DNA of 64,000 nucleotides from Schmidtea polychroa (Eukaryota): NCBI GenBank assembly GCA_044892525.1, contig CM097885.1:15564001-15628000 (forward strand), read 5' to 3'. The notes below the pieces were generated by a model. The model was not told the origin of the DNA, searched no databases, and saw only the letters and a list, made by a program, of their open reading frames with translations. The position numbers were made by a program, and so were the translations under genes. Positions within the stretch are counted from its first letter, which is position 1, and each line of letters opens with the position of its first letter. Below are positions 6,605-31,929 of the stretch, in pieces.

Positions 6605-6675
6605 ACCTCAGATGTGATTTGAACCGCTAGCATTTTGAACCACTGTGTCAGTCTAGCCCACTGCGCCATCAAGGT
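6605..6675 (-). ncRNA. Candidate Pol III tRNA-like RNA-1, variant a
   Basis: A-box TGGCGCAGTGG, B-box GGTTCAAATC, T8 run at 6594-6601. Near-identical to 19478-19548. Confidence 0.55.
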
Positions 6676-6916
6676 TTGGATTTTTGTCATTTTTTAAAAT
6701 AATCGATTCAAGTTCTTTTATTCTTTCCTGTAATTGTTTTATTTTATCTAATCTTTTCTCAGCTACTTCTACTGCATTCATGTAAAAATGTCGATACTTT
6801 TCATTCTCTACCACCAACTCTTTAATGTATTCTAATGGTTCTTCTTCTCTTCTTTTCATTCTCTTAAGTTTAACTTCATTCAATTCATTTCTCATTCTTT
6901 CAATAAAGTCAATCAT
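6653..6916 (-). CDS. Small charged coiled-coil protein of the Polinton (87 aa), function unknown
   Basis: E/K-rich heptad-like ORF with AAAAATG start context, divergent from MCP. Confidence 0.55.
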   Translation of the reverse strand: MIDFIERMRNELNEVKLKRMKRREEEPLEYIKELVVENEKYRHFYMNAVEVAEKRLDKIKQLQERIKELESIILKNDKNPNLDGAVG

Positions 6917-7001
6917 TTTTATAAATTATTTTTTTATTGAATTCCCTTTTATTTTTATTTTTTTTTTCAACTTTTATTTTTATCAACTTTTATATATAAA
7001 A

Positions 7002-8294
7002 ATGAATAATATAAATCTTAAAATTCAAGAAAAAAATAAATTAAATCTTGATTATAATAAAGAATTTACTCATGAAATCAAGAAAAATGATGTACTTAAA
7101 ATCTCTCCAACTTCAGGATCTATTGCAAACTTAAATCGTAGGGGTGATATAGTTTTTCAATCTCTTCAAACATCAAACCCAATAGATATTTGTAATGCCA
7201 AATTATATTACAAAGTAGAATTAGAAATTGAAGCAAACAAAGATATAACCCTAGAAAATAATTTCTTTCCAAATTTATTCTCCAACATGAGATTAAAACT
7301 AGGATCATCAGAAATTGAAACTGTTTTACATCCAGGAGTATATTCTACAATGTTAAATTTTATTTTGACTGGTTGTGATTATAAAAATGAATATGGTGAA
7401 TTAACAGGTTGGATTCCTGACACTAATAAAGGGGATTTAGATAAAGATGGTTTAGATGTAAACCATGGTTACCATAAAAGAGCTGAACTTTATAAATCTA
7501 AAAAATTTGAAGGTTATTTTGAATTAAAACACTTGTTTGGATTCCTTCAAAACTATAATCGTATACTTCATAATGTTTTTATAGAATTCATCTGTAATAG
7601 AGTAGAAGGTGATAAAAGATTGTTCTATGGAGCTGTAGATACAAAAGCTAAATTAAAATTATCAACACTTGAATTACATATACCTGAATGGACATTAAAC
7701 CCACATTCTGAAATCAAACTCCTTGAAAGATTAAATTCCAACAAGTCTATAAATGTAAATTATTTAAATAGAATCTGTAGTGAATTTAGTATGACAGAGG
7801 GTTCAACATATTCTATAAAGGTAGCAAATTTTGCATACCGACCAAGATATATCTTGATTGGATTCAAAGAAACAGATTCATCTTTCCAAAAAAATAACAA
7901 TCTATTTATTCAAAAGATTGGAGATGATAATTTAAAAACAATCCAAATTCAATTAAATAGTTCTTATTATCCAATAAATAGAATGGAATTTAATATTGAA
8001 AATAATGAAAACATATTCCCATATCTAAATTATATTGAAACATGTTATGATTTCAAAGTTGAACCGCAATTAAGTTTAGAAGATTTCAAAAATTTATATT
8101 CTATATTTTGTATAAATGTATCAGACCAAGATGATCGATTAGCCATAAATAATGTTGATGTTACACTTCATGTAACAAAGGATTCTAATTTTAAAGCTAA
8201 AGTATATACATTAATATTAGAAGAAAAGAAAATAGAAATGAAATTATATGGTGGAAAGATTTCAATTATTGAAAATGTTAGGGGAGATTCTTAA
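7002..8294 (+). CDS. Polinton major capsid protein (double jelly-roll, hexon-like), ~430 aa
   Basis: Likely start MNNINL at 7002 (the upstream part of the ORF is low-complexity). Motifs RPRYILIGF, IQLNSSYYP and YSIFCINVS are typical of Polinton MCPs; size fits. Confidence 0.85.
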   Translation: MNNINLKIQEKNKLNLDYNKEFTHEIKKNDVLKISPTSGSIANLNRRGDIVFQSLQTSNPIDICNAKLYYKVELEIEANKDITLENNFFPNLFSNMRLKLGSSEIETVLHPGVYSTMLNFILTGCDYKNEYGELTGWIPDTNKGDLDKDGLDVNHGYHKRAELYKSKKFEGYFELKHLFGFLQNYNRILHNVFIEFICNRVEGDKRLFYGAVDTKAKLKLSTLELHIPEWTLNPHSEIKLLERLNSNKSINVNYLNRICSEFSMTEGSTYSIKVANFAYRPRYILIGFKETDSSFQKNNNLFIQKIGDDNLKTIQIQLNSSYYPINRMEFNIENNENIFPYLNYIETCYDFKVEPQLSLEDFKNLYSIFCINVSDQDDRLAINNVDVTLHVTKDSNFKAKVYTLILEEKKIEMKLYGGKISIIENVRGDS

Positions 8295-8311
8295 TATTTT
8301 AACATTTTAAA

Positions 8312-9727
8312 ATGTCTTTAAATAAACCCTATTGGAGATGTGAAACTTGTAATTGTCAAGTTACAAGACATCATAAAGCAAGTCGTCTTAAAACTAAAAA
8401 ACATACAGTAGGTGACCTAATTCCACGAGCTGGAGGCGATTTGCAATCTTCAAAAACAACATCTTCAATATTAAAACCTTTTACTACAGAAAAATATCCA
8501 GGTGAAAGACATTTATTTAAACACAACTATACTGGACCAGGAACACGTCTAGATATTAGATTAGATGAAAATAATAATCCCAAACAAGGAGAAGAACCAA
8601 TAAATAGAATTGATCAAACAGCTTTAAAACATGACATTGCATACAATTCAACAAATCTTAGAGATAGACATGTTGCAGATGTGAATTTAATACATGATTT
8701 AAATAGTATCCAAAATCCATCAACCCAAGAAAAGATTCAAAGAGCTCTAGTTAAATTAGCAATGAAAGGTAAGATTTTCATAGGCTTAGGACACAGTCCG
8801 ATCACCATGGGTGCAAGACTTCCTAGGAAAGCAAAAGATGTTGCTAATAAAAAGATTATTGAACAAGCAGATGCTGAAAGATCCCTCGAGAATATATCCA
8901 AGACTAGTTTATTAACCCCAACAGAATCACAAATAAAATATGCCAACGAATTACACCATGAATTTAGAAAAAATAAAAAATATTTAAAAGTTCAAGTACA
9001 TGAAAAAGATCAAACATGGTCTGCAGATTTAGTCTTTATGCCAACCAAATCATCAGACCCTGAAAAATATAAAATAATTTTAACTGTAATAGATTTATAT
9101 ACAAGATTTGCTTTTGCAAGATGTTTAGAAAATAAAACAGGATATTCTATTACAGAAGCATTTGAAAATATATTTGAAGAAAATCAAAGAATCCCAAAAT
9201 ATTTATGGTGTGATAAAGGAACAGAATTTTATAACAAAGTTTTTACAAAGTTTTTAAATGAAAATGATATTAAATTATATTCAACAGAAAACGAAGGAAA
9301 AGCAGTCGTAGTTGAAAGATTAAATAGAACATTAAAAAATAAAATGTGGAAATATTTTACTGCTATTGGAAAACAAAAATGGAACAATGAATTGTTACAA
9401 AAGATTGTAAATGAATATAATAATGATGTACATAGTTCTATAAAATTAACACCTTTAAATGCTTCCATGAAGCCTGAAACCATTAAAGTGGTAAATATTG
9501 AAAATGATGTTATTGAAAAACTAAAGTTTAAAATTGGTGACCGAGTAAGAATATTTAAATATAAAAATAAATTTGAAAAAGGATTCACAGCAAAATGGAC
9601 AAATGAAATTTTTATTATAAATAAAATACATTATACAACTCCAATAACATATAGCATCTTTGATTTAAATAATGAAAAAATATTAGGTAGATTTTATAAT
9701 AATGAACTACAGAAAACAGATTTTTAA
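8312..9727 (+). CDS. int: Zn-finger + parvovirus-type PLA2 domain fused to a retroviral-like (rve) DDE integrase
   Basis: PLA2 motifs HNYTGPG and DQTALKHDIAY. Integrase WSADL..., LWCDKGTEF...VVERLNRTLK, with 33 residues between the second D and E. One uninterrupted ORF. Confidence 0.92.
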   Translation: MSLNKPYWRCETCNCQVTRHHKASRLKTKKHTVGDLIPRAGGDLQSSKTTSSILKPFTTEKYPGERHLFKHNYTGPGTRLDIRLDENNNPKQGEEPINRIDQTALKHDIAYNSTNLRDRHVADVNLIHDLNSIQNPSTQEKIQRALVKLAMKGKIFIGLGHSPITMGARLPRKAKDVANKKIIEQADAERSLENISKTSLLTPTESQIKYANELHHEFRKNKKYLKVQVHEKDQTWSADLVFMPTKSSDPEKYKIILTVIDLYTRFAFARCLENKTGYSITEAFENIFEENQRIPKYLWCDKGTEFYNKVFTKFLNENDIKLYSTENEGKAVVVERLNRTLKNKMWKYFTAIGKQKWNNELLQKIVNEYNNDVHSSIKLTPLNASMKPETIKVVNIENDVIEKLKFKIGDRVRIFKYKNKFEKGFTAKWTNEIFIINKIHYTTPITYSIFDLNNEKILGRFYNNELQKTDF

Positions 9728-9738
9728 GTCGACAAGCC

Positions 9739-10530
9739 CTAAAACAAACTTTTCCATATTTCAGCTTCTTCTCTATCCAAATAAATATAATTATATTTTT
9801 CTTTCCAATGATTATCAACAAACATATCAAACATATTCTTATCAGGTTCAACATTTGAAAATAAATCATTATAAATCATATTCTTATCACGGCGATCTAA
9901 TTTAAAAAATATAAAACAATTGGAATTATTTCTTATTGAATTTTTATCTAAAGCATAATATGTTTGAGATATATAAATAACATTACAATTATTATGTCGA
10001 CCTCGTGTAAAGTAACTCTTTTGAATCTCTTGATTTTTCATATTAACAACATCATCAAATATAACTAGATTCTTTTTATCTTTAGGAAGTAAATCACAAT
10101 GTAAAACATCTTCAGGTTTATTAGAGAATAAAACTTGAATTGCCTCCTGCCCTTCTTCACAAATATAATCATTTTTATTACTAATATCTGATTCTAAAAT
10201 CTTTTCCTTATACCAATCAACCATATCACAAGGTTGATAAACTTCTTCAGGACACCTATGTTGATTTTTAAAAATATCAATTATTGCTTTTTTAGTTAAT
10301 TTATTTTCAAATCCACATTTCAAAAGTTGTAATTCTGGTTGATTTATGGTTGTAGAATAAAAGATTAAATTATTATAATCTAAAAAATCATCTTCAAGTA
10401 ACATTCTCAAAACAAGTACATTCTTTCCACATCCAGAAGAACCAACAATTAATAATCTAAAATTATCAGGAAATACTTTATTATTAAATTTACTCTTATG
10501 TCTATTTAAAATTGGTTTCCAAATATCCAT
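9739..10530 (-). CDS. Polinton DNA-packaging ATPase (A32-like, FtsK-HerA superfamily)
   Basis: Walker A GSSGCGKN, Walker B LVIFDD, TRGRH motif, ISQTYY. Likely start MDIWKP at 10530. Confidence 0.92.
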   Translation of the reverse strand: MDIWKPILNRHKSKFNNKVFPDNFRLLIVGSSGCGKNVLVLRMLLEDDFLDYNNLIFYSTTINQPELQLLKCGFENKLTKKAIIDIFKNQHRCPEEVYQPCDMVDWYKEKILESDISNKNDYICEEGQEAIQVLFSNKPEDVLHCDLLPKDKKNLVIFDDVVNMKNQEIQKSYFTRGRHNNCNVIYISQTYYALDKNSIRNNSNCFIFFKLDRRDKNMIYNDLFSNVEPDKNMFDMFVDNHWKEKYNYIYLDREEAEIWKSLF

Positions 10531-10545
10531 TTTATTTATTATAAA

Positions 10546-11115
10546 ATGACCTCGAAGAGTTCCTCTACTGAAGAATCTTTGCAAGAATTAATAAATTCAA
10601 ATAAAAATAAATCAGTAGTAATTGATGGTAAAAAATATTTTATTGGAAAACATGTAAAAGAACAAGTTAGAGCGAAGCTCCACGAAGCTAAAGAAGGTGG
10701 CATTCTTCCATTAGCTGCTTTAATACCTGCAATCATTGCTGGTTTATCAGGTGCTGCTGGAATAGCTGGAGGAATTGCAACTACAGTTCAAAAAGCTAAA
10801 GAATCTCAAAAGACAGACCTAGAAAAAGAAAAACTACAAACTGAAATCGATTCAATGAAGAAGGTAAGGCAAGCTAAAGGGGGAGTGTCCGTTGGAAAGG
10901 GTCTCTATCTTAATCCATATGAGGGGAGTCGGCAAAAGTCTCAGGGCAAAGGTCTCTATCTAAATGATTTTTTAAAAAATCAAATTTCTACATCTGAATC
11001 TTTATCTTCAAAAGATAAAGAAGATTTAAAAAAGATATGTAAATCTTTAAAGAATGGATGCCTTTGTAAAACTAAAAATGGTAAAGGATTATACTTGAAG
11101 CCCTTCGAACTATGA
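10546..11115 (+). CDS. Putative virion core/membrane-active protein (adenovirus pX-like)
   Basis: EGG-ILPLAALIPAIIAG hydrophobic segment resembles the adenovirus pX C-terminus (GG-ILPLLIPLIAAAIG). Three GKGLYL repeats. Confidence 0.6.
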   Translation: MTSKSSSTEESLQELINSNKNKSVVIDGKKYFIGKHVKEQVRAKLHEAKEGGILPLAALIPAIIAGLSGAAGIAGGIATTVQKAKESQKTDLEKEKLQTEIDSMKKVRQAKGGVSVGKGLYLNPYEGSRQKSQGKGLYLNDFLKNQISTSESLSSKDKEDLKKICKSLKNGCLCKTKNGKGLYLKPFEL

Positions 11116-11137
11116 TACCATTTTTGATACCATTAAA

Positions 11138-12019
11138 ATGGTATATGAAGAAAGATTAGCACTTTTAAAAAAATTACAATCAGAACAAGATAAATATAAT
11201 AAAAAAGATACAACTCAACATGCTGAATCTATAATATTAAATGAGGTAATAACACAACAACAGGGGCCAACAATTAAAGCTATAAAAGAGTTGGAAGATT
11301 TCAATGAGCAAGCAAAATTTAAAGAGTTAGAAGATAAAAAACAAAAAATAAAAGAACTAGAGTGGCAGGATAAAGAAAAAGAATCCAGTGAAAACCATCC
11401 TGAAAGAAATCAAAGAAAACGCAGAAGAATTTCTAATGTGGAAGAAGAAGAAATGTTTTTAAAAACAAAACCTCTTAAAGTTGATCCTAAAATTAGAGAT
11501 GATTTACCTCCTTCAATTAGACCCACATTTAATACTAATACTGAAGGATATCAAATAATAACAATTAATAAACAAAACTTTACTTTATATTCAAATTCAG
11601 AAAATAAATCACGTATTCATTCACAAAATGTTTATAATAATGAATATTTAGACTTTGAATTTACAGATGATTTTTATAGATTACTTTGTGGATATTCTTC
11701 AGATGATGTTGAAGAAATTAAAAAATATTTAAATTTAATAAGATTAATAAGAGCTAGTTCTAAAGCAAAATATATTCAAGATTTAAAGAATTATTTAAAT
11801 AAAAATGAAAAGGGTTATGTTGTTACAGAGGGAGAGGGATTAATTAGTGAAGGTGGTAAACCAAATCCCATCAATCTTTTTATTGAATTAAGAAAACTAT
11901 TAGCTGCAAGGAAAGCAGGACATAATAATTTAGATTCTGATATTTTAAAGATTTCTAAAGATTTGTTAAAACAAGGAATAATTTCAAAAGATAAATTTAA
12001 TAAGTATACGAAGTTATAA
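11138..12019 (+). CDS. Conserved Polinton protein of unknown function (293 aa)
   Basis: Intact ORF in the structural cluster. C-terminal LRKLLAARKAGHNN...DLLKQGII resembles a helical motif recurrent in Polinton ORFs. Confidence 0.6.
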   Translation: MVYEERLALLKKLQSEQDKYNKKDTTQHAESIILNEVITQQQGPTIKAIKELEDFNEQAKFKELEDKKQKIKELEWQDKEKESSENHPERNQRKRRRISNVEEEEMFLKTKPLKVDPKIRDDLPPSIRPTFNTNTEGYQIITINKQNFTLYSNSENKSRIHSQNVYNNEYLDFEFTDDFYRLLCGYSSDDVEEIKKYLNLIRLIRASSKAKYIQDLKNYLNKNEKGYVVTEGEGLISEGGKPNPINLFIELRKLLAARKAGHNNLDSDILKISKDLLKQGIISKDKFNKYTKL

Positions 12020-12041
12020 ATACGAAGTTTTAAAATACAAA

Positions 12042-12506
12042 ATGACTCCTTCAATATTAGATTTTTTAAAAACATTTGGAATAAATGCAAAAACAAATTT
12101 TGATTTAAAAGATTATGCAAATTATTTAAATTTAAAAATTAAAATATTAATGAATGATGAATTATCAAGTCTGGAGAGTCCCCTGAATATAATAATCAAT
12201 TATCAAAATTCAAATGAAAAAGGATCTCATTGGGTTTGTATATATAAGAAATCTATCTACTTTGATTCTTTTGGGATTAAACCTACTAAAGAAGTTGAAG
12301 ATTATCTCTTGAGGGGTTCTCCGATTGATTCCCCAAATGGTTATACTTTTAACTCTTTACAAGTTCAACCTTTGAATACTAAAATATGTGGTATTTTAAG
12401 TTTATATGTTTTGTATAGATTGAATAAGGGAGAGGGAAAGGGGCATACGCAGGATTTTAAATCTATAATTCAAGAAATTTATAATGATCTAGAATCTCTA
12501 CTATAA
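12042..12506 (+). CDS. Adenain-like cysteine (maturation) protease
   Basis: GSHWV (His), YFDSFG (Asp), VQ...ICG (Gln/Cys) catalytic set. Confidence 0.92.
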   Translation: MTPSILDFLKTFGINAKTNFDLKDYANYLNLKIKILMNDELSSLESPLNIIINYQNSNEKGSHWVCIYKKSIYFDSFGIKPTKEVEDYLLRGSPIDSPNGYTFNSLQVQPLNTKICGILSLYVLYRLNKGEGKGHTQDFKSIIQEIYNDLESLL

Positions 12507-12554
12507 GGATTTTTACTATAAGGATTTTTACTATATGAATTTACTACTAAAGAA

Positions 12555-13319
12555 ATGGAGCTTCACAACCCTCCGGAAGATAATTTAAAAAAAATGGTAA
12601 ACATAATGTCAGATAAATATTCAAGAACTTTATCTATAAATTCAAAAGAATCAGACTTTACTATAAACTTTCAAGATTCAATTAAATTAGATCAAAATTT
12701 AAATTATGAATTGGGGCTATTATGGTTTTGTGCTTATAATACTATTTTTAATATAACTAAAGATAATAATAAATTTACTATTCAAACTCGTGATGGGCAT
12801 AAACCAGAAATTATAACAATAGAACCTGGGGCATATGAGATAAAAGATTTAAATGATATACTTTCTAAAAAATCAAATGAAGGTATTAAAATTAAAATGG
12901 ATATACCAACTTCAAAATGTGTAATGACTTTGAAGAATATAAAAATTAGTTTTTTAGATAATTGTTTCTTTCACACAGTTTTAGGATTTAAACCTATGGA
13001 TATAACAATAAAAGAAGATAAAATAATAACATCAGAACATATTATAAAAATAATAAATACAAACACAATAAATATTCATTGCGATTGTATAACAGGTTCT
13101 TATAATAATGGTAAACAAACAAATGTTTTATATTCCTTTCCCTCAAACACAGTTCCTATGGGATATAAAATAGTTGAAAGAATGAATCCTCCAAATTATT
13201 TACCTTTATGTAGAAAATATATAATGGATATTAATTTTAAAATTCTTAATCAAGAAGGAGAATTGATTGATTTTAATGGAGAAGAGATTTCAATGTATTT
13301 ACATTTGAAACAGGTTTGA
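12555..13319 (+). CDS. Polinton minor capsid protein (penton, single jelly-roll)
   Basis: INIHCDCITGSY, VLYSFP, GYKIVE..P.YLPL and NQEGELIDFNGE..S.YLHLK C-terminus are typical of Polinton pentons. Confidence 0.88.
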   Translation: MELHNPPEDNLKKMVNIMSDKYSRTLSINSKESDFTINFQDSIKLDQNLNYELGLLWFCAYNTIFNITKDNNKFTIQTRDGHKPEIITIEPGAYEIKDLNDILSKKSNEGIKIKMDIPTSKCVMTLKNIKISFLDNCFFHTVLGFKPMDITIKEDKIITSEHIIKIINTNTINIHCDCITGSYNNGKQTNVLYSFPSNTVPMGYKIVERMNPPNYLPLCRKYIMDINFKILNQEGELIDFNGEEISMYLHLKQV

Positions 13320-13343
13320 AGATTCATTTTAAATTATTAATAA

Positions 13344-14354
13344 ATGAGTTCTTATATTCCATGTAATAGAGGTGGTGGAACAATAAAAACAGGGTTTAAT
13401 ACAGAAGAAATATTAACTTTAACAGAAAATAAATATATTAATGAAAGAGGTGATTCAATGAAGGGTGATTTAATTTTAAATGGACACAAGATAAAAGAAT
13501 TATCTTTTCCAACTGATGAAGCTGATGCAGTTAATAAGAAATATGTAGATGGTGTTAAAAAATATACTGATTTAACAACAACAAGAATTGAAAGTTCATT
13601 AACAACAAAAATTGATTCAATGGAATCAAAGCTTAATAATATCGAACAACGATTTAATGATAAATTTGACAAGTTACAAAGTCTGTTAACTGAACAAGTT
13701 GTAAAGTTAAATACTGCTATATTAAATTCTAAAGATAAACAAATTATGAATACTAAATTTAATACAATATATAAAATAATAAATGAGATGATTACATCAT
13801 TTAATAAAAGAATTTCAAATTTAGAGTCTCATGGAACACACATTAACACCACACATAGTATTAGAAAAAGAGCTGCTGAATTAGAACAGAATAAAACATT
13901 ATTACCCCATACATATAAACATTTTATAGAACCAAGTTTAATAACAACAAACAGTAAAGAATGGGGTGTTTTTATGGTTGTAAAGATTATTGATCCTTAT
14001 TTCTTTTTGTTTGATGATGATAATGAAAGAATGAAATGGTTTGTGAAATGTGATTATAATAGTAAGCTTGAAAAGGGTGATGTTATAATGACTAGTTATG
14101 ATTTACCACACGGAGATTGGTATGTTAATACTCATTCACATGGACTACATAAAGTTAAAAGTAAGAATATTATTTTTAAAAGCACACTTGTACAATATAT
14201 AGATTTAATATTTTATGAAAAAAAGGTTGATGTTGATGAAGTTCGTAAAGCATTGAGAGAATTGTATAAAGATATCCTCTCAACAAGAGTTTCTTTTGAT
14301 ATCCGAGTATTGGTGCCAGATGGTGCTCAGAAGAATAAAGTCTTATTTTTTTAA
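13344..14354 (+). CDS. Putative fibre/spike protein
   Basis: GDSMKGDL and PTDEADAVNKKYVD resemble trimeric fibre/adhesin stalk motifs. Followed by a coiled coil and a beta-rich C-terminus; adjacent to the penton gene. Confidence 0.55.
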   Translation: MSSYIPCNRGGGTIKTGFNTEEILTLTENKYINERGDSMKGDLILNGHKIKELSFPTDEADAVNKKYVDGVKKYTDLTTTRIESSLTTKIDSMESKLNNIEQRFNDKFDKLQSLLTEQVVKLNTAILNSKDKQIMNTKFNTIYKIINEMITSFNKRISNLESHGTHINTTHSIRKRAAELEQNKTLLPHTYKHFIEPSLITTNSKEWGVFMVVKIIDPYFFLFDDDNERMKWFVKCDYNSKLEKGDVIMTSYDLPHGDWYVNTHSHGLHKVKSKNIIFKSTLVQYIDLIFYEKKVDVDEVRKALRELYKDILSTRVSFDIRVLVPDGAQKNKVLFF

Positions 14355-14362
14355 TTATTAAA

Positions 14363-14959
14363 ATGGAAGAAGTAAGAGAAGAAAAAATTTACCCAGAATT
14401 GAGATCATCAGGATATTATTCTTCCAAGGCCTCGGCTCCCACAGAACTTGAAATTATGAGAGTAAAAGAATTTAAATCAGAAACCTTACATTTACAAGAT
14501 TTATTAAAGCATTATAAAAAAATTAAAAATAGATGGAATAAAGGGAATACAGTTTTAAAAGTTATAGGTTATTCTTTAGGATTTGCATCTGCAATATTAA
14601 CAGTTATTTTACCCATAACTTTACCAGTTGTTACTCTTGCACCTGTAATACTTGGAAGTATTTCTGTGGCTGATGGTTTCTTAACTGAAATAGTTTCATT
14701 ATCTTATACTTCTAAAAAGAAAAGTTTATATAGAGAAGTTTGTTTATCAATAGAATTAGGAATCTCTAAATTATTTTTATTTCAATTAAAAGCTTTGGAA
14801 GATGGAATCCTGACAGACGAAGAAATAATGAAATCAAATCAAATAATACAAGATATAAAGAATGAGGTTATAAGATTAAAAAGGGAGGGCATGGTGGCTA
14901 ATGTTATAAGTAATAAAAAAACATCTCGAGAAAAATGGTTAAAGAATTCTTATTTATAA
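14363..14959 (+). CDS. Polinton membrane protein with a hydrophobic hairpin (198 aa)
   Basis: Long hydrophobic segment VIGYSLGFASAILTVILPITLPVVTLAPVILG between coiled-coil regions; KALEDGILTDEE. Confidence 0.6.
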   Translation: MEEVREEKIYPELRSSGYYSSKASAPTELEIMRVKEFKSETLHLQDLLKHYKKIKNRWNKGNTVLKVIGYSLGFASAILTVILPITLPVVTLAPVILGSISVADGFLTEIVSLSYTSKKKSLYREVCLSIELGISKLFLFQLKALEDGILTDEEIMKSNQIIQDIKNEVIRLKREGMVANVISNKKTSREKWLKNSYL

Positions 14960-15053
14960 AATGGGTTTATTTTTAAAAAAGTAGATCAGGTTGCTATAGT
15001 TGCTTAAATTAATTGTCGACATTTTATTATTAAAAAATTAAATATCGTTGGTT

Positions 15054-18000
15054 TCAGTTATGGTTGAAAGCCAACCTTTGAATCATTAATTTATGATCTT
15101 TAAATTCTTTATCACTTAGACCTTTTATATATTCAGGATCAGTATTAAAATATTTAAGTTCTAAACATATAGGATTAAAAACTTGAGAATATAAAGGCTT
15201 CTCGATTTCTCTCTTGGGATAAATAATTTCAACATTATAAATATCAAGATCAGTAATCTTTGTATCATATAACTTATTCAACTTTTCTAGATTTTTTATT
15301 ATAGGGATTAAATTATTTCCAATAGGTAGAGTTGTCTTTAAATCACTTAGTATGAATCTCTTATCATCATAATTTGATAATGATACTTTTTGAGATTCTA
15401 TCAAGTGAATATCATGGTTTTCACTTTTAAGTTGATGTATTTCATCAATTTTATCTTTATGATTTGGATTCAATGCATCTATATAATCTTGATGAGAAAG
15501 ATTCTTTGCAACCACTCTCGGTATTCCTTTACATCTGTTATCCTTTACAGGTTTTTCTTCTTGTCCCTCTGGTCCTTTAGGAAATATAGGATATCTATGT
15601 GTAATGGTTTCTTCTGTTTCTGGAGTTTTAAATATAAATGATCTAGTTATAAATTCAGGGTTTCTAAATGTTTCGTATGAATATTGTTTAGCACGAATAA
15701 ATATTCCATTTTCTATAGGAGTAAAAGGTTTTTCATCTTTAAACGAAAATAGTTCTCCAGTTGAATTTATTAAATTTGAAAGTATAGGATTTTCAGCTAT
15801 ATCTCTTTGTAAATCATGAGTTCTTATTGTTAAAAACATTGAATCTGTATCCATTGCATGCATTGATATATTAGAACCATATATAGGTTGTAAGATGTTA
15901 TAATATGTTTCATACATTTGTAATTTTGAAAGTTCTAAAATTGAAAACCCTATAAATATTGGTTTGTTGTATGTTTTCTCAAAACTCTTTAGTTCTATTG
16001 CAGTAAGACTTTCAGAAAATACTTGTGCGTTTTTAAATGTAGGCTTTCCTAGCATACGATTATAACGCTTAATATCTTTGGCAGTATTAGTTAGGAGTTC
16101 AATATGAGTATATTTATCAACATTCTCCATTGTCTTCCCAAAGACTGAATTGTTTAAAAGTTTATAATTATTATCTTTAAAAAGGTTACCTTCTCTTTTT
16201 GCAATGTTTCGACACCTAATGTTCTCCTCGATAAAAGCTTTCATGAATGGAGCTTGTTTAAATCTTATGACACTATGAACTTTTTTTAATATCATTCCTC
16301 GTGAGAGATAAAATTGGAGGAGTCTATAGTGACAAAGATAAAACCTTCGATCTGTTTGATCACAAAGAAGTTTCATTGTTGGAGGTTTATCTTGTGAGAT
16401 TTGCCATTCAGAAAGTTCGTTGATATCAATCTTTCTTCTTATGGGAGCTAAAGGAAAATATCTTGTTCCTGATTTTATATCATCTGGATAGTCGAGGTCA
16501 CATTCTATAAAGTAACCTATTGGAAAATCTTTCGACGTTGAAAGTATTTCTTTCATAAGGTCATCTGTTGGGTTCTCTATTCCAGTGAAATCACTCATTG
16601 GTAAATATTGAGTCATAATTCCTGAATATAAAGCTGTTGCATCTATATAAAGTATAAATATAGGATTTTTCATTGTTTCTAATAATTCTTTTAATTCCTC
16701 ATTGTTAATTTTCATATATGGATCATCAGGGTGTTTAGAGAGTCTTCGGCTAGTAGTTATTGCATTTCTAGCTTTTATTTCTCTATTCCCCATTACTGAA
16801 GAGACTCCTCCTCTAATGTTTGTTTTAATTTGGTTAAACATATCGAGGTTAGTTAAAAGATCTATAATTTTATCAGCATCTTCTATATTTGAAGTCCAAA
16901 TGGTATATAACATAGTATCCCAAGCTAAAGAGGGTGCAGTTATATAATTATAAGGTTTAAGAACAAAAGAGTTTGTAAATTCTTCAAAGCAATCTGCTAG
17001 AATATAAACATCTAAGGATAAATACATGTTGGTATATTCTCCTAAAGTTTTACACTTGAATAATTCCCACATTTTTAATGCTCGAGAATATTCTTGATCT
17101 GTAATCCCTGATTGTAGTAAGTTTGAAAAGAAATCTTCTTTGTTAGGAAGACTTGTTTCATTATATCTTTCAAACGAGTCAACATAGTCATAAGGATATA
17201 TTTCCTTTTGCTAAACATGTAGGATATTCTTCTAGAGGAATATTATTTTTTTCCAAGAATTCTCGAGTGATTTTAAAATTTTCTGGTTTCATTGTTTTTG
17301 CTACTGCATCTAAAGACATTTGGAGAAAGTTTAACGAGTCTATAAATTTTAATTTTCCATATTCAATTGATTTATATTTTTCCTTTGTTAAGCCGATAAC
17401 TTTGAAAGAGTTTTTAGCATTTGCTGCGAGGTGTTTAATAAATAGATGTATGTCATATCCAAAAAGATTATGAAATATAACAGGTATAAATTTAGGAGTA
17501 TGACAATTAAGATTGCAATTTTTATGAGCTGCTCCTCGATAATTATTTTCCTTTTTTAAATGATCATGATCTATAACTTTTTCATCAGGAAGAATATTCT
17601 GTTTACACATCCAACAGTTGGAAGTATTTTCATATTCTTGTTGTTGTTGATTAGAAATATTTTTGAGGATACTTTGTTTTTAATATTTTAAATATTTCAT
17701 GTTCTAGATCATTTATATTTTTAGTAAAATGATTCAAGACTTCTGTTTCTGAAATTCCTCGAAATGTATATTCTCTAGATTCTATGAGTTCAGGATAATT
17801 ACTTTTAAATAATAATTTATAAGCAGATGGTAATTGTTTAGTTTTTTTAACACTATTAGGTTTATTTCTTTTTCTTAGAAAGGCTTTCATCCTCTCTGGT
17901 TTCATCTTCTCTCCTGAGGAGTTCCAGGAATCCATGAGTTTATTTTTTTCTATTATTTTTAAATATTGATAAACCAAATCTTGTTTATGGTTTATAGATT

Positions 18001-19410
18001 CAAAGTCACCATAAAGAACTCCAACTGTTTGTAGTAAATTTGAAAAGTTTTTAAAATATATCTTGGGATTATTAGGCATTTTAATTAAAGCTGGATCATC
18101 TTTTTCACAAAGTCTTGTATGTTTAATCATAGAGTTTTAGTTGTTGAATAATGAAGACATCTTTTACATGTTCCTCCTCCACTAGTTGGATTCTCTGGTG
18201 ATGTAAAAGCTTGAAAGTTTTTTATTAAAACATAATATTGATTATTTTGTTGTTCCAAGATTAAAAGATATATCTCCCTAGTGTTATCCTGCGGTTCGTT
18301 ATCTCTAACTTCATAATCTGAAATATAAATTGGAATAATTTCTCTGCTATTAACATGTTTCCCTTTAACACGTTCATAAATATTAATTTTAAGATTATTT
18401 AAACTTTCAAATTTTGGAATGTCTTCTAGTTTCATTGGATGTTTGAATCCTTTGGGAAATATTAATTCATTTTCATATTGTTTGTATTTTGAAACTCTTT
18501 GGGGATTTGTTGCTTGAGGATGTAAATGTGCAAATATTGACCAGATGAAACATTTGTTATCATTATTCTGTACATTTATAACATTTTTAGATTTAAAGGG
18601 TGTAGGAATATAAGATTTAGGATTGGGTGGTAATCCTCTCCAATAATCAATCACTAAAGTTTGGAAAGAGTTGAATACTAAGTTTGAATCTCCTAATTCA
18701 TTTTCTACTTCCTCTTGTTTTGCTTCTGCTGCTTTAATTATTTCTTTGATGGTTTTATCAAATCCTTTAATTGAAAATAAATATTTAAAAGGTATTCCAA
18801 TTTCAACATCTAAGGGTGTTGTCTTTTCTTCTGCTCCTCGCCAGTATTTTGCTTTGATTATAATTTTATATTTTATAACATTATACCTTGTCGGTTTATA
18901 ATTTTTTAAAGCTTCAGTGAAAGAATTTTTAATATTTTTTTTATTTTTATTTATATATTCTCCAGGAGTTGCAGGCCCATTAATTTTTAATTGAAATTCA
19001 TCTATATGATTAAAATTATCCCAGTTATATTTTTCTCTTTCAACATGATCAGGTTCTCCTTCTGAATGACATTCCTCATCGTCAGAATTTTGTTTTTTAT
19101 TTTTACATTCTTTTATATGTTCTAAATAATAGAAATTTAGTTTTGTTGAAAAGTTACAATGAGGACATGTAAATATTTCTCTATTTTTCCCGATACAATT
19201 TTCAAAATGTTTATTATATCCAGAAAATAGAAATCTTCCTTTACATTTAAGACAAAGTTTTGAATTTGTATCATTAAGATTATTTTCTTTTAATAAATGA
19301 GCTTTCGATTTTAAGTGAGAAATTAATCCAGTTTTATTTTTAAAAACTTTATTGCAAATATTACAATTCATTTTTAGAAAAAAAATTTTTATTGGATACC
19401 CTGTTTTCAT
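15054..19410 (-). pseudogene. polB: Protein-primed family B DNA polymerase (pPolB), broken by three frameshifts
   Basis: N-terminal C2H2 fingers, INVQNNDNKCF, exo YGDFES, CWMC..DHDH..YRGAAH..CN, KGIYPY (frameshifted), YIDATALY, KLLNNSVFGK, MDTDS, YDDKR. Frameshifts at ~18130, ~17662 and ~17203. Confidence 0.93.
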
Positions 19411-19477
19411 TTTATTTTTTAAGATTTATATTATTCATTTTTTATAATAAAAATTTAAAAAATGACAAAAAATCCAA

Positions 19478-19548
19478 ACCTTGATGGCGCAGTGGGCTAG
19501 ACTGACACAGTGGTTCAAAATGCTAGCGGTTCAAATCACATTTGAGGT
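19478..19548 (+). ncRNA. Candidate Pol III tRNA-like RNA-1 (right TIR copy)
   Basis: A-box 19485-19495, B-box 19528-19537, 7-bp terminal stem ACCTTGA/TTGAGGT, T9 at 19552-19560. Confidence 0.55.
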
Positions 19549-19726
19549 TAGTTTTTTTTTCAACATAAAATAATATTAAAAATTTGAAAATAATATTGAA
19601 AATAGTGTGGGTATCTTATATTTATAAAGTACTTGTATATTTTATTTTATTTACTTTATTTTATTTTATTTTTTTATTAATTAATTATTTTTTAAACATA
19701 AATATGAAAAAAAAAATATTGAAACG

Positions 19727-19818
19727 GGTGTGGTGGCGAACCGGTAATTATCGCCACCAGTCTTTCGAACACACCCGGATCGATCCCATAATGTGCACAT
19801 TTATTTCTCGGTTGTTTT
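19727..19818 (+). ncRNA. Candidate Pol III RNA-2 (right TIR copy); may extend further
   Basis: A-box-like TGGCGAACCGG (19734-19744), B-box GGATCGATCCC (19777-19787), stems CGGGTG/CACCCG and TGGTGGCGA/TCGCCACCA, first T4 at 19815-19818. Confidence 0.4.
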
Positions 19819-20433
19819 CGGACCTCTTTCGGATTCGCTTTCGAATTCATTTGTACTTTCGAGCAGCACACTTAAAACGCCGATGAAATCGTATTCGAGC
19901 GAGAAGCGAATAATAAGGTGTGCTGCTATTATCGAATTGATTCTGATTATGAGCCTGGCCAGCTTGTATATTGGAAGAGATTTGATAAACGAAAGAGGTT
20001 GAATAAAAAAAAAATGATCCAGATCAAAAAAACTGTTGAGAGGACAGTGAAAAAAAAAAAATACCACTGTCCTCTCAGAGCAGTTTTACTATTTTCATAA
20101 AATTTTTTATTCTTCAAGACATCAAGATTAAGATTTCATTTATTTTTTTTAATTAGCCAATTAGCAACTTGCTAGTTGGCATCCTCAAGTAGCCTTCTAA
20201 CTTTTTCATAATACCATTTTCTTTTCTATTCTCTTTATGGTTTTAGTTTGAAGCTTTTGAGTTTGAGGCTTTAAAGATTAAAACAGTTAGAGTCATTAAG
20301 GGTGGTTGTTTTCAAAATTTAGGGTTAAAATACTATAAAAGTATAAGTTTTAGGTTGTTTTTCTAAGCTTAAGTGATTTGGAGGCATGTTTTGTTGGGAG
20401 GGCTGTTTTGGTTGGGTATATAACCACACTACT

Positions 20434-20533
20434 GCTGGAAGATCAAGAAGTGGAATTATTTTGACGGCTTATTTAATGAAACATTTTAAATTTGGTCCAA
20501 ACGATGCGATTGAGACAATTAAGGAAAAGTCAT
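20434..20533 (+). pseudogene. DUSP12: DUSP12-like copy A, continuation after the Polinton, truncated at ~20533
   Basis: (AG)RSRSGIILTAYLMKHF... matches 21783-21882, then diverges abruptly after AAGGAAAAGTCAT. Confidence 0.88.
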
Positions 20534-21469
20534 AGAATAGGAATAGAGCAAAATCGAGTCAATGAGAACGAGAATAATTATTCTGAATTTGTAAAAAGTA
20601 ATACTGAACTATTAGACAAAGCTTTTGATAAAGGAGACCAAGTTACAGCAGATGAGTTAGAAAATATTGTCAAAAGTCACAATCAAGAAGAAAATTTTGA
20701 AAGTAAATATGATGAAACTGAAGTAGATGTGTCAGACAAGAATGAAAATTATAATAGTCATGTAGGCACAGAGGTTGTCGACATTAATGTTATCGAAAGA
20801 CCGAATTCTTTGGTAGAAGATAATTTTCAAAACATGGAAGACGTAGTTAATGTTCAAACGGATTCTGCTTCTTCAGAAAATCATTTAGAAACTGATCGAA
20901 TTATGCCAGATTCTGAGAGCAATGACAGTGATCTTAGAGTCGATATTGGTAAAGATCATACATCCGACACAGCTAAAGATTCTGAACAAAATACATTCAC
21001 TCAACCAACGTCTGCTTTAGATGATATCATTGAAGACTATTCACCTGGTTCCCCTTTATTAAATGAGATGCAACAGGGAAAAGTGGGGACTATTGAATTG
21101 GTGAAACATGCAGGAAGGATAATGGAGATATTGCAGCGAAACAGAATGAAAAGTGGCAGGGGCTTGGTCGAGTATGGCGATGGTGGGAGGAGAATCCACC
21201 ATGATGTATCCAGAAAGGTGCGTGGTGCGGCGGCCTATACCATAGCAAGATGGGTGTGTGAGGGGTATTGGAGAGAGGCAAAAGGAAAGGTTCCCCTGAA
21301 GTAATTGGGTGTTTGATCCGCTAGAAGGGATCAAGGAGGGGGGAAATGTTTCGACCAGTCAGAGGGGGATTGCCTCTGACTGGCATTTATTCGGTTTCTT
21401 TTTCTATCGCATCTGTGTGCGCGGTCTGGTTAGACTGAATATTGTTGGTGTGCGCACACAGACGCGAGT

Positions 21470-22200
21470 AATGGATTGTTGTTTGGAAGTAGGTTTTGAT
21501 GTAATTTTTTATTGAATTGATTTTTGATGTATTTTAATTAGAAATTCGAGATTTGAATGGATTGTTTTGTGGTTTAAAAAAGTTAAAATTCTGGAAGGGA
21601 GGAAACCAGTTTTGTTTATTGAAATAAGTTTTGGAATCGAAATGTTTGAAGAAGAAGATGTTGATTACAAATTTATTAAAGCTTATGATGTTCCAAACCA
21701 AGATCTTATTTCTTATTTCGATGAAACCCGTGAATTCATTGAAAATGGCAGAAAATTTGGTGGAGTATTGGTTCACTGTCTTGCTGGAAGATCAAGAAGT
21801 GGAATTATTTTGACGGCTTATTTAATGAAACATTTTAAAGTTGGTCCAAACGATGCGATTGAGACAATTAAGGAAAAGTCATTTATATGTCCAAATGATG
21901 GATTCATGAAACAATTAAAGATATATTTCAACATGAATATCAGTGATGAAATCAACAAATGCGCAAATACAGTTTCTCAAGCTCAATTTAAGTTATCAGC
22001 ATCTTCAAAAGATTTAGTTCAATTCAAATGTAGAAAGTGTCGATTTTTATTATTCGACAATTCAAGTGTTGTTGAGCACAGTAAAATGAAAGCTTCGAAA
22101 GCAATAAATGAAAGCACAATTTGCAATGAGGAAATACTTATCGAAGCTCTTCCTTGGAATGATAGCAGCAATGCAGACGGGGAAATGAAAATGACAGTGT
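21470..22200 (+). CDS. DUSP12: DUSP12/YVH1-like phosphatase copy B (catalytic site intact; 5' frame and 3' end doubtful, possibly a pseudogene)
   Basis: VHCLAGRSRS active site, ICPNDGFMKQL, and the start of the C-terminal Zn domain FKCRKCR. The last part of the Zn domain is not seen before the (TTA)n tract. Confidence 0.7.
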
Positions 22201-22240
22201 TAAAGAATAAAATATTAATGATTTATTTGGATCTTATTCA

Positions 22241-22412
<172 letters not shown>

Positions 22413-22679
22413 TAACAGTCTCATATTATATTTTAAACAATTTAAATATTATTTGGAATATTTTATAAGATACAATAATATGAGTTATTTCATTTTATTC
22501 ATATTTGTTTGTGTGCTAAATTTCATCTTTTTACAAAAACATTTTCTCAATAATAAACTATTGTTTAGATTATATTTTCATGTAGTAATATGAAAGCGAA
22601 ACAATTTTTTATTTCTCTTTCATCTGTAACAATAAAGTTAATTTCGACCAAATTATATTAATTATTAATTAAAATTATT

Positions 22680-26786: not shown

Positions 26787-26962
26787 GTAATAGGTAATTT
26801 ATATTTTATATGTTATAAGTTATGTTTCTGTAGTAATAGATTTAAATCGATCTTTAATTTGTGGAATTTGGTTTTGATGGTTTGTTAATGGAAGAGCAGG
26901 AATCGTTTGTTTGAACTGGTAAATTGTGTAGAAATTTTGGATTTTTGTTTTTTAGTTGAAAC

Positions 26963-27655
26963 ATGGAAGAAAATGAAGGCCTGAAATGTCGTCTTCCAAT
27001 GAGCAATATAGCGAAGATTATTTTCTCACCTGAAGGGAGATCATTCCAAGTCGAATATGCATTTAAGGCAATTGCATTAGATGGATTGCTTTCCGTTGGT
27101 ATTCGAGGCAATAATGGTGGTGTAGTAGCTACACAAAGAAAAGTTCCAGATAAAATGATTGAGAAGAGTTCAGCTACAAGATTGTTTAATATTACTGAAA
27201 GTACTGAATGGGTTATGACTGGTATGATCCCTGATTGTCGATCTCAAACATGTCGTGCACAAATGGAAGCAGATCGATTTAAATATAAAAATGGATATGA
27301 AATGCCTTGTGACATAACATGTCGTTGTATCGCGGATATTAATCAGCTCTACACCCAATCGGCTGAGATGCGACCATTAGGTTTATCAATGATAGCATTA
27401 TCTTATGATATTGAAATGGATAAACCGTTATTATTCAAAACTGACTCCAGTGGCTTTGTAACTGGACATCGAGCTGTTGCAGTTGGTGGGAAGCAATTGG
27501 AGGCTAAAAGTTATTTGGAAAAGAAACTACGTAAAAATAGAGCGTGTGAAACTATCAAATACATAAAAATCTTTTTGACGTGTTTTAGACGAAAACAAAT
27601 GATAATAATAACAAATAATAATATTAATAATAATGATAATAATAACAAAAAATAA
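26963..27655 (+). pseudogene. PSMA6: Proteasome subunit alpha-1/alpha type-6-like, intronless, with altered N-terminus and truncated C-terminus
   Basis: IFSPEGR.FQVEYAFKAI, TQRKVPDK, VMTGM..D.RSQ, KYKNGYEMP, YTQSAEMRPLG, LEKK; then runs into low-complexity sequence. Confidence 0.8.
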
Positions 27656-29095
27656 ATAATAATAATAAGAATAATAATAATAATATAAAACGAAGATTCC
27701 TTGCCAGTAGCATCGATTAAAAATAAAATAATTAATAAATAAAGTTCTAAGATTTCAGTGCAAATTTCATATTTAATAAAAAAATAAATGAGAATTTTCG
27801 ACTATGAAATAATCTTATTTAATTGATTGAAAAATAAATAATAAAATTCCACTACTGGTCAATGTAGGCAAGGTGATTGCTCGCCATATATTCTCAGGAA
27901 ATGGCCATAGTTTGCCTTTTGATGGACATGAAGGACATTTTGTATCCGGCTATTGCTGGAGGTAATATTTTATATGGATGACACGTGTCAGCTGCCTGAG
28001 AGCCACAGGAATATCCTAGAAGGCCACTATTAGCATAGAAAGGAACTTATTTACTCCTTCACTCACCAATGAGAATGAATAATAATTTAACATTATGCCA
28101 TTTTCGCATCTAATGCTTTACTGATCCATCTCAGCCATGTAGAGGCGCCATTGAAAGCTTGGTCAGACCGCGTGCCAATACTCATGCTCATTGCGGAAAA
28201 TCCAGTCAAATCGCCTTCATTGCCCTCATAAACATTACACAAATGCACTCAGTCTGGGACACATTTCTCGCTATCCGTTCTGAGTAAGCATCCGTTTGTA
28301 CAGCTCCTTTCATGCATGCCATCTGATATGTCAGTGTGGGATCTTGTCTGTGTACAAGTTTCCACACCTTTAAATTGAGGATCTAGAAAGGATAAAATCA
28401 AATTCCTAATAAGTCACGTCACAATGTATCAATGCGTTCGATGAAATAACAAAAAACAATGAAAGATGACCACGACTACTGTTGAATGACATCAGAATGG
28501 TCCTGACAATTGCTCAATGGTGTCCATTAATTGGATTAATATTAAAAAATATAAAACAAATGTTTGATTTTTTGCTGAATCTGCTGTGACCGATTTCTGT
28601 GCCATATTTATGTACATCTATCAAAACATACACTCTCCAGGACATTCACTAGCACAGTGAACTACAATTTGATAGAATCAATTTAATTAAGTGTCAATTA
28701 GGCATTGCATTGATCACAGATTTCATAAAATTATACAAATATTCGTTACAATTTAATTTTTTATTGTGTTAAATCTAATCCAATTTATCAATATTGCTTT
28801 GTGCATTTGATGTTTTATCATTGCAACTATGTCACAATAAAATGTTATAAAATTATAATTTAAATAATTTTGTAATATTTAAAATAAATGAGAAAAAAAT
28901 TAACATTAATAATATTTTGATTTGCGCTAAAAGTTAAAAAACAATATTTATAAAATGTTTGTTTATCTACATCAAAATACAAATTATAAATATTGAAATT
29001 GTCAACGTCAGAGGAAATAATTAATATAATAAGTATGATTTATGATTGTTGTAAAATGTTGAAATATTTTGATAATATTGTTAATTTTAGATAAA

Positions 29096-30955
29096 ATGTT
29101 TGCAATCGTATGGGAAATGATGAAGAGGAATAAATTTGAATTTGATAATGAAATCAGCATTGAATTGATATGCAGAATTTGCAAGTGTTTAATGATAAAA
29201 GCTTGCAATGCTCCTTGCGGTTGTCGCTTTTGTTCTGATTGCATTGAGCAATATTTGGATGGAAAAGATAAATTCTGTCCAGGAGCATCAAAACATTGTG
29301 GAAAGAAAATGATCAATTTCAAAAAAGATGTTTCTGAAGATCATGCAGCCAATTTAAGGATTTCAGAAGTGATAGTGAGATGCCCAATGCAAAATTGTCA
29401 ATTCAAAGATGAATTAGAAGTGATGGAAAGCCACATGAGTACATGCACCAAGAACACTGATCAGATCAGTAATATATGCAATGAGATGCAAGCAATGAGA
29501 GATGAGAATGTGACATTGCGTAATGAAATTATCAATATCAATGTAAAATTTTATTTGTAATTAATTTTATTGATATTTGTGATTGTAGGTGAAACAGAGC
29601 AATATTGAAAGGAAAGAGGCGGAGAACAAAGGAGAAATAGAAGAATTGAATGAGGAAATGGTGGCATTGAAGAATGCGAACCGCTCATTGAGAATGGATA
29701 TGGAGACAAATATTGGATCAATCAGTCAAGTTTGATTATTGGTTTGATTTACTATTGATTTGTTATTGACGCAAAGCAGGTCAGACAGCAAATTGAGGCG
29801 ATTGAATCAAAATGTCAACAGCAAATTGATGAGATGAGAGAGAAATGCGAACAGCGGCTGCAACAAGGGGATGAAAAGGTGATTTATTGATTTATTGAAA
29901 TATTTGATTTTGAGATTCAGTTGCAGCTTGAAATGGCGAAATGCGCCAATGATATACGGCAGAATGAATCAAAATATCAACATCAAATTGATGAGTTGAA
30001 AGAGAAATGCGAGCAACGTTTGCAACAGGTCAGACTGCAAATTGAGGCGATTGAATCGCCTCAAATGAGAGAAATAATTCAATTGGCATTTTTAATTATT
30101 ATCTTGATGCTCATGGCAGCTCAAATTCGGCAGAATGAAACAAAATGTCAACAGCAAATTGATGAGACGAAAGAGAAATACGAGCAGCAGTTGCAACAGG
30201 GGAATGAAAAGGTGATTTATTGATTTATTGAAATGTTTGAATTTGAGATTCAGTCGCAGCTTGAAATGGCGAAATATGTCAATGAAATTCGGCAGAATGA
30301 ATCAAAATATCAACATCAAATTGATGAGATGAAAGAGAAATACGAGCAGCGGTTGCAACAGGGGAATGAAAAGGTGATTTATTGATTTATTGAAATGTTT
30401 GAATTTGAGATTCAGTCGCAGCTTGAAATGGCGAAAAGCGCCAATGAAATTCGGCAGATTGAAACAAAATTAGCAAATGAAAAATATATAAATTATGGAT
30501 TTTTTGAATGGCAAATCGATAAATTTTCACAAGAAAAGAGAAATGAAATTATTTACAGCGAGGCATTTTATTCCGGGCCAATCGGTTACAAAATGTGCTT
30601 GTGGTTGGGGACTAGTGGTGATTTGTTTGGGATTTTTAATTGGGTTAATGTTGGTTTCTGTTTGATGCGTGGGGCAAATGATGAGCAATTGGATTGGCCG
30701 TTCAATCAATCCGTGACAATCGATGTGATCGATCCAGAAAATGGCAACATTTATATGAGCAAGTTTATGAAATATTCAGATCGCCCTCTTGATGCCGGAT
30801 GGAGGAAACCGTCACAAGACAGAAATGATCCAATTGGCATTTATTATGAGTATTATGATGTCAGCTCAATCTATAAATTAGCAGCCAAAAGTGATAAATT
30901 GCTGCTCAGGTGCAGAATTGAAAAATTCTTACAAATTAAAAAAACAAATCAATAA
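29096..30955 (+). CDS. TRAF-like protein (RING, Zn finger, coiled coil, MATH), spliced
   Basis: CRIC...CGCRFC..C...CP RING, VRCP..NC...H..TC finger, short GT..AG introns (e.g. 29543-29588, 29879-29920), MATH FEWQID...YSEAFY..P.GYKMCL...LMRG.ND..L.WPF. Confidence 0.88.
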
Positions 30956-31929
30956 AAATTGATTTATTTTGGCTTTTGATTTGTTTTATTGTTTGCATTT
31001 TTTATTATATTTATTATATGAGATAATTATTGTGGTAATTATTGTCATTCTCGCCTTCCATCCGATATCATCATCACTTGGCGGAGCGCTCACAGCAAAT
31101 TGCCAATTGCAATATCAACATCAATTATATAATTAAATAAAAGCAATTTAATTAAATCAAAACATTTAATATAAATTTGAATAATTATTATAATTAAATT
31201 AATAATTAATTTGAAAGAAATGAAATTAAAATTCACCCGAATATAAGCGCTGACAAATCGCCTCAACAAATCAAACGCTCCTATGACGAGTGGAACTGAC
31301 GAAAAAACCGCCGCTGATGTTATATGAGTTTTGGATAAATTATTGCTGTACTGAATGGCAGTAAAATGCACCTAAATGCAATACTAACACCGCGTTATAT
31401 CAAATTGAATTCTTTGAATTTTACTTATTAACAAACAACGAAATTTATCTTGAAATCTTGAAATTATAAAAAAGGGGATCATTTAGGAAATTTATAAATG
31501 AGGTTTTAAAGTGAAGTTGAGTCCAATACCTAATCTACATCAATACCTTGTGGTGATAAGTGACGGTTATGGAGTTTAAGGCGGGGGGGGGGTTATTTAT
31601 AAAATTTATAAATTATAATCTTAAATTAAACGTAAGTTGAGCATACATAATAAAGTAATTTACATTAGCGAATTTGGTACTTGATTGATGGTCATATTAC
31701 TTGAGGGGCATAAATGAAATTATAATTTTAAAATTCAAAATTTTAATTAGACATTTCTAAGAAAACAATTTACATTAATACATTTAGGATGAGATTAGTA
31801 GCAGTGGCACTTTAAGAGGTCAAAAATAAAATTTGTAAATTAATATTTTAATTCTCAAATACAAGATGAATAAATATATAGATAATCTATATTAGGGAAA
31901 TTCTTAATAAGTAGATGACTCTTAGCAAT

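Follow-up and report, generated by a model that had tools for sequence, protein, structure and literature searches.

Adenoviruses and many other eukaryotic DNA viruses are believed to descend from Polintons, and to our knowledge nothing is known of how integrated Polintons handle host chromatin and small-RNA defences. The virus-borne VA RNAs I and II of adenoviruses have internal A- and B-box promoters for RNA polymerase III (Pol III) and an oligo-T stop, are often encoded by two tandem genes and, at a length of about 160 nt, act via a long imperfect duplex. The TMERs of murine gammaherpesvirus 68 (MHV68) are viral, non-aminoacylated tRNA-like genes that lie near the genome end and are driven by A and B boxes; their tRNA parts keep the cloverleaf and are followed by pre-miRNA hairpins. 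Box DNA can also act by factor occupancy and not by RNA, as in the insulators formed by TFIIIC-bound tRNA genes and ETC sites, the latter of which lack A boxes and terminators. Published sources describe tRNA-like Pol III genes in MHV68 (PMC8223928) and a scan of 8300 genomes of Polinton-like viruses (PLVs) and of virophages that yielded 558 tRNAs, read there as codon-usage helpers (PMC12220804). Because tRNA genes of Polinton-like viruses are known, Pol III genes in this virus group are not wholly new. In full-text searches of the literature, general reviews aside, we found no description linking Polintons, Mavericks or adintoviruses to Pol III genes or tRNA-like units.

Here we describe a short unit with the layout of a tRNA gene in the terminal inverted repeats (TIRs) of a Polinton, within a 64,000-nt stretch of Schmidtea polychroa DNA (contig CM097885.1, positions 15,564,001 to 15,628,000, forward strand) that we refer to as the window. 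Like eukaryotic tRNA genes, the unit has an A box at position 8, a B box at 52-62, an oligo-T run 3 nt downstream and a body of tRNA-gene-like length (71-72 nt); unlike them, it has no cloverleaf. It shares with the VA genes the internal A and B boxes, the oligo-T stop, the frequent occurrence as two tandem genes and a virus-like carrier, but it is about 75 nt long, folds no better than chance, matches VA RNA in neither sequence nor structure, and lies inside a TIR, at both ends of the element. The TMERs resemble it in being tRNA-like genes with A and B boxes near an element end; we rejected an MHV68-type TMER, as the unit lacks a cloverleaf and its run of T residues starts 3 nt beyond the body. 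Whereas the tRNA genes of PLVs and virophages are detectable as tRNAs, the unit cannot decode, sits in a TIR and is duplicated at both ends. Like the heads of tRNA-derived SINEs, it has kept the boxes, lost tRNA function and reached thousands of copies, but unlike them it has neither body nor tail, is followed immediately by a terminator and has no independent copies among the loci that we sampled. Its placement brackets a coding region, as does that of TFIIIC insulators; unlike ETC sites it keeps an A box and a terminator, and its TFIIIC binding is a prediction.

A tRNA-gene layout at the inner edge of Polinton TIRs

The right-hand unit, which we recognized by its sequence and by a box-pattern match, occupies 71 nt of the forward strand (19478-19548). 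It opens with the 5′ arm ACCTTGA (19478-19484), followed by the A box TGGCGCAGTGG (19485-19495; TAGCGCAGTGG in other copies), a spacer of 32 nt in this copy, the B box GGTTCAAATC (19528-19537), ACAT, TTGAGGT (19542-19548) and TAG, after which a terminator-like run of nine T residues (19552-19560) begins 3 nt past the body. Two more units lie on the reverse strand near the left end of the element: an inner one of the same type as the right one (6605-6675, with eight T residues at 6594-6601) and an outer one of a second type with a different middle (6372-6443, with eight T residues at 6361-6368). Reading the sequence directly placed all three copies where an earlier note on this DNA had put them. 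Its account of the layout stood for the 71-nt body and for the 44-nt offset from T8 to G53, but not for a 33-nt spacer, the spacer being 32 nt in the right copy; the third window copy has a spacer of 33 nt. The 7-bp terminal stem that it described is present in the right copy but is not a general feature: the T at 19542 occurs in one of 65 aligned units, and the C found in the other 64 faces an A, which leaves 6 bp. It had also stressed that all copies point outward; they do, but their orientation is not independent evidence, because it follows from the unit's lying in an inverted repeat together with tandem duplication.

By sequence the unit has the features that define a type-2 Pol III unit, namely A and B boxes that fit the consensus at a spacing of 30-60 nt and at least four T residues downstream. 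The pattern TRGCNNAGTGG-N32-GGTTCRANNC matched twice in the window (the third copy, with its longer spacer, falls outside it) and never in 100 dinucleotide shuffles. The same layout is found in the host genes for tRNA-Lys(UUU) and tRNA-Arg(UCG), which appear typical of animals and have a 73-nt body followed after 3-5 nt by six to seven T residues. The unit is also the GC-rich island that the earlier note saw, with a GC fraction of 0.479 compared to 0.16 and 0.195 in its 200-nt flanks. Within it, a second B-like motif, GTGGTTCAAAA (19511-19521, forward strand), is conserved in the main family and looks like an internal duplication of ~16 nt; 17 nt upstream of the B box, GGTTCAAA is present a second time. 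Immediately before the unit is a conserved A/T-rich block (19453-19477, forward strand) whose position matches the TIR's inner edge.

The carrier is a complete Polinton/Maverick of 14,932 bp and 27% GC (5502-20433), identified by Pfam matches, TIRs, termini and a target-site duplication (TSD); the 6-bp TSD, GCTGGA, was read directly at 5496-5501 on the left and 20434-20439 on the right. A blastn comparison of the two ends, combined with a repeat search, gave a left TIR of ~1.2 kb (5502-6698) with two tandem ~233-bp modules, each holding one tRNA-like unit, and a right TIR of ~0.98 kb (19454-20433) with a single module. Each module consists of the unit and about 150 nt of A/T-rich DNA. In each TIR the unit occupies the inner edge, 25 nt from the inner boundary and about 900 bp from the terminus; the first ORF begins 68 nt away on the right, and the capsid gene is about 150-330 nt away on the left. 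Matches above their own Pfam cut-offs identified a protein-primed PolB (PF03175), an rve integrase (PF00665), a double-jelly-roll (DJR) capsid protein (PF21738) and an A32-type packaging ATPase (PF04665), and this gene set, together with the long TIRs and the 6-bp TSD, makes the element a Polinton/Maverick, in agreement with the earlier placement of the unit in Polinton TIRs. A penton protein and an adenain-type protease are further marks of the group; five ORFs at 10546-14959 had no Pfam match.

The first gene inside the left TIR encodes the major capsid protein (6825-8294, forward strand), which has 17 relatives in the protein collection; because these align from about residue 60, its true start may be near 7002. 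Next to it, the integrase ORF (8312-9727, forward strand) joins an N-terminal PLA2-like domain (PF08398, E 1e-8), of the type that Pfam describes from parvovirus capsid proteins, to the rve core (PF00665, E 7e-12), a fusion that is unusual for a Polinton integrase. The first gene inside the right TIR is a C2H2 zinc-finger ORF (18127-19410, reverse strand) that starts 68 nt from the unit and is probably the N-terminal module of the four-ORF PolB gene region (15054-19410). That region, on the reverse strand, is divided into consecutive ORFs of 672, 140, 159 and 427 aa; the first ORF opens with a C2H2 / U1-JAZ-type zinc finger, and atlas leads for it (below 0.9) are proteins combining zf-C2H2, Endonuclease_7 and DNA_pol_B_2.

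Copy number and conservation of the unit

Counting patterns over this species' own 781-Mb genome, with a reversed-pattern control that returned zero for every pattern, we obtained 1605 matches to the pattern containing both boxes, 2124 to one based on the flanks only and 2861 to one combining the B box, the T run and the sequence downstream. The genome therefore holds at least 2861 units. Relaxing the A box raised the first of these counts only from 1605 to 1611, and the six additional matches brought no new kind of locus. All 30 loci recovered by BLAST with the unit (including the window itself and one 99.9% duplicate) were copies of the same Polinton, with homology stopping at the same terminus, and so were all 20 of the pattern matches that had appeared solitary, two of them rearranged. 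At each of these 50 sampled loci the unit lay between the outer TIR and the interior genes of the same Polinton family, and at none was there a free, SINE-like copy outside Polintons, which the earlier note had raised as a possibility. Among 50 TIR ends, counted with a filter for a near-full 148-nt match, 36 carried one unit, 13 carried two and one carried three; wherever an end had at least two, the inner was of the first type and the outer of the second (14 of 14). The Polinton copies are mostly young, being 95-100% alike. One of them, 314 kb away (L001, G000:C1:15895924-15899041), is 99.87% identical to the window, and because this identity extends past the terminus into the host flank, the whole Polinton locus appears to be a recent segmental duplication.

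The boxes vary little among these copies. In the first 100 listed copies anchored by their flanks, and so not chosen by their boxes, we counted by eye an A box fitting TRGCNNAGTGG in 95 and the B box GGTTCAAATC in 98. The A box had only two common forms, beginning TGG and TAG and both within the consensus, compared to at least 14 versions of the adjacent 5′ arm, and among the first 100 copies listed for the pattern of B box, T run and downstream sequence, nearly all had a run of seven to nine T residues. The B box was invariant in 39 distinct unit sequences, a figure inflated by the fact that part of this sample was found with patterns requiring the boxes. Diversity in these 39 was 0.036 in the two boxes versus 0.161 in the rest of the unit, and only 83 of 20,000 random pairs of blocks had a diversity as low as that of the boxes. 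Across subfamilies, then, the boxes, their spacing and the T run are constant while the middle and the arms change, as the earlier note had seen in a single divergent copy, and its proposed check by TIR alignment found the boxes conserved and covariation in the stem absent. Conservation of the boxes is not unique in the region, because the 35 nt of A/T-rich DNA that follow the T run are at least as invariant as the boxes, if not more so. Moreover, because the Polinton family is young, conservation at the level of copies is weak evidence.

More divergent sequence comes from the one relative examined in context, L071, a 2.4-kb locus. Its zinc-finger protein is 45-65% identical to that of the window (73% in coding DNA), and just upstream of the zinc-finger gene two units stand in tandem, facing outward as in the window and at the corresponding place. 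Its inner unit retains the A box, the 44-nt offset and a run of eight T residues, with a largely different middle and 3′ arm. Compared with L056, which like L063 is another divergent type known from its unit sequence (units at C1:3375576 and C1:16853244 for L056 and L063), the boxes of this inner unit are identical at 20 of 21 positions and the remaining positions at 36 of 55 (Fisher p=0.008); compared with the right copy of the window, the corresponding figures are 19 of 21 and 33 of 55 (p=0.013). The single box mismatch lies in the B box and is private to this unit, five of eight sister loci carrying GGTTCAAATCC. The A/T-rich block upstream is about 90% identical in L071, and the A/T-rich region downstream of the T run is ~80% identical, versus 73% for coding DNA.

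In L071 the outer unit takes a short form, its single B box starting 28 nt past the start of the A box; with boxes this close together, tRNA geometry is not universal among the units. This short form, seen in L066 and at L071:801-915 (reverse strand), has the A box TGGCTCAGTGG, then 17 nt and then GGTTCAAATCC; it has no ~16-nt internal repeat of the kind found in the main family, and its upstream sequence is different. It may have arisen by deletion between the two GGTTCAAA repeats or may be the older form.

Fold, possible role and rival explanations

We rejected a functional tRNA gene, as the earlier note had anticipated. ARAGORN found no tRNA in the whole window and none in eight unit variants at its default, 90% or 80% thresholds; at 70% its calls were inconsistent (Val, Thr, undetermined or on the opposite strand). 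Rfam gave no match at gathering scores, and at E<=10 it gave four chance-level matches for 19400-19650, none of them a tRNA or VA RNA. By manual count the D, anticodon and T stems of the right copy form 5 of 14 non-acceptor pairs, which is the chance level, and no cloverleaf results. Nor did folding energy set the unit apart, the three window copies having z scores of +0.60, +0.72 and +0.15 against shuffles, with none better than its shuffles. The terminal stem showed no covariation and, because types of 5′ and 3′ arm combine freely, it is not maintained. With respect to a tRNA of origin, the two host genes compared, those for tRNA-Lys(UUU) and tRNA-Arg(UCG), were unlike the unit beyond the boxes, the host tRNA search having returned only tandem arrays of a few species.

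Our best reading is that the unit is a decayed tRNA gene that has lost its cloverleaf and become a fixed part of the inner TIR in a very abundant Polinton family. We lean, if only slightly, toward the further view that selection on this tRNA-gene-derived, type-2 Pol III unit acts on its promoter and terminator and not on an RNA structure, a pattern that, as far as sequence goes, suggests a Polinton recruiting the host tRNA transcription machinery for its own purpose. TFIIIC would bind the A and B boxes, TFIIIB would be placed on the conserved A/T-rich block upstream, and Pol III would start near 19475-19478 and stop in the T run, giving a U-tailed RNA of ~75-80 nt with little structure. Because selection is visible on the promoter and terminator and not on RNA pairing, the benefit would lie either in occupancy by Pol III or TFIIIC, which might set up, at each end, a boundary or 'bookend' that separates the outer TIR from the first gene, or in a short RNA acting independently of its fold. 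In this scheme we infer TFIIIC binding, transcription and any function of the unit.

The conservation on which this reading draws could be only apparent and due to the youth of the family, if a host tRNA gene or pseudogene was captured by, or inserted into, one TIR and has since been copied to the other by TIR homogenisation as a functionless, neutral passenger. Such a passenger is consistent with copies that are 95-100% alike and with a sequence that has no stable fold, no covariation and decayed stems (the 5 of 14 pairs). We nevertheless consider it unlikely, as L071 still has the boxes, their spacing and the T run next to a protein only 45-65% identical, with a middle and arms that have diverged to about 50-65%, and as the subfamilies differ at many positions in the arms and not in the boxes. 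Selection might instead act on these motifs as binding sites for something other than TFIIIC, either a Pol II promoter or enhancer of the terminal genes or a replication or packaging signal, with the likeness to a tRNA gene being ancestral. The proximity of the unit to the terminal genes (68 nt on the right and about 150-330 nt on the left), the adjoining A/T-rich blocks that are at least as conserved as the boxes, and the second GGTTCAAA repeat upstream of the B box all fit this proposal, but the constrained positions are exactly those of the Pol III consensus, the only common change in the A box (G9 to A) still conforms to TRGC, and a T run at the distance typical of tRNA genes is kept in both families, which together make it quite doubtful.

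The earlier note had suggested a candidate analogue of VA RNA, which we take as a Pol III RNA, abundant and structured, that inhibits PKR or swamps the RNAi machinery. In its favour, the gene is of Pol III type, its carrier is virus-like and related to adenoviruses, and many ends have two tandem paralogues in a fixed inner and outer order (14 of 14 ends). As a mechanism, however, we found it very improbable. The predicted RNA is about 75-80 nt as compared to about 160 nt, none of the three window copies has a folding energy better than that of its shuffles (z +0.15 to +0.72), the freely combining arms do not preserve a terminal stem, and Rfam at E<=10 offered only the four chance-level matches. 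VA RNAs are marked by a length of ~160 nt and by a stable, conserved terminal stem, apical stem and central domain, and on length, fold, covariation and Rfam search the unit does not belong with them. A structured PKR or Dicer decoy is unlikely because there is no fold above that of shuffles and no covariation in the one stem. Chance insertion of a host tRNA-derived SINE into a Polinton would account for a tRNA-like head with A and B boxes in thousands of copies, but it is scarcely credible given that all 50 sampled loci lie in the same Polinton family at the same position, that a terminator directly follows the head, so that no SINE body could be transcribed, and that a relaxed A box gains no more than 6 matches across the genome.

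Our reading can be extended tentatively to a broader claim, which we regard as possible and would not yet call probable: that this animal Polinton lineage encodes its own Pol III genes, with a pair of paralogous tRNA-derived units at each end whose inner and outer order is fixed, which selection has maintained while at least two element families diverged and which are either transcribed into abundant small RNAs or hold TFIIIC and Pol III at the ends of the provirus, acting against silencing or read-through. If this is true, no Pol III non-coding gene would have been described for Polintons before, and the units would parallel in function the adenoviral VA genes and the herpesviral tRNA-like genes. 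Occurring at both ends of thousands of copies, the unit offers a concrete and cheap handle on the question of how Polintons deal with host chromatin and small-RNA defences. Through it the host genome also gains thousands of potential TFIIIC sites, with possible effects on host chromatin organisation.

Relatives elsewhere and surrounding sequence

Outside this genome, the unit pattern had no matches in viral contigs or metagenome contigs. Relatives of the capsid protein were likewise absent from the viral contigs; 14 metagenome contigs encode them (34-52% identity). These 14 contained no A+B units and no tRNAs, and they are mostly 1-2.4 kb long, with the ends of the element outside view. The capsid gene of one 6.7-kb contig among the capsid relatives is internal and not terminal.

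Around the Polinton itself, the left flank recurs, as a direct repeat of 99% identity, 1 kb past the right end, the repeated pairs being 5150-5503 / 21437-21790 and 4869-5208 / 22192-22466. Both flank repeats carry arrays of mostly 9-15-bp units beside an ORF for a dual-specificity phosphatase (21642-22415, PF00782), and at least 10 of 50 other copies (e.g. L005, L006, L034 and L036) have the same short repeat 0-3 kb from their TIR end. This could reflect either an insertion preference or a host repeat that was co-amplified. Between the right end of the Polinton and the repeated host flank, the 1-kb gap contains a 266-aa ORF (20504-21304, forward strand) with no Pfam match.

Farther along the window, a tandem array with a 19-bp period and at least 39 copies runs from 39282-40113 onward. 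The segments 26943-32774 and 56683-62957 form a direct repeat of about 6 kb, 90-97% identical, with short ORFs and about 30 kb between its two copies; it is probably another repeat family or a duplication. Elsewhere in the genome, host tRNA genes occur in long tandem arrays (G000:C4:76658343-76669437, C333 and C474), as in one example with 23 identical-scoring matches spaced at multiples of 424 bp, of which the one examined was tRNA-Lys(UUU). As a rough count, a loose scan of the genome returned about 112,000 tRNA-like candidates.
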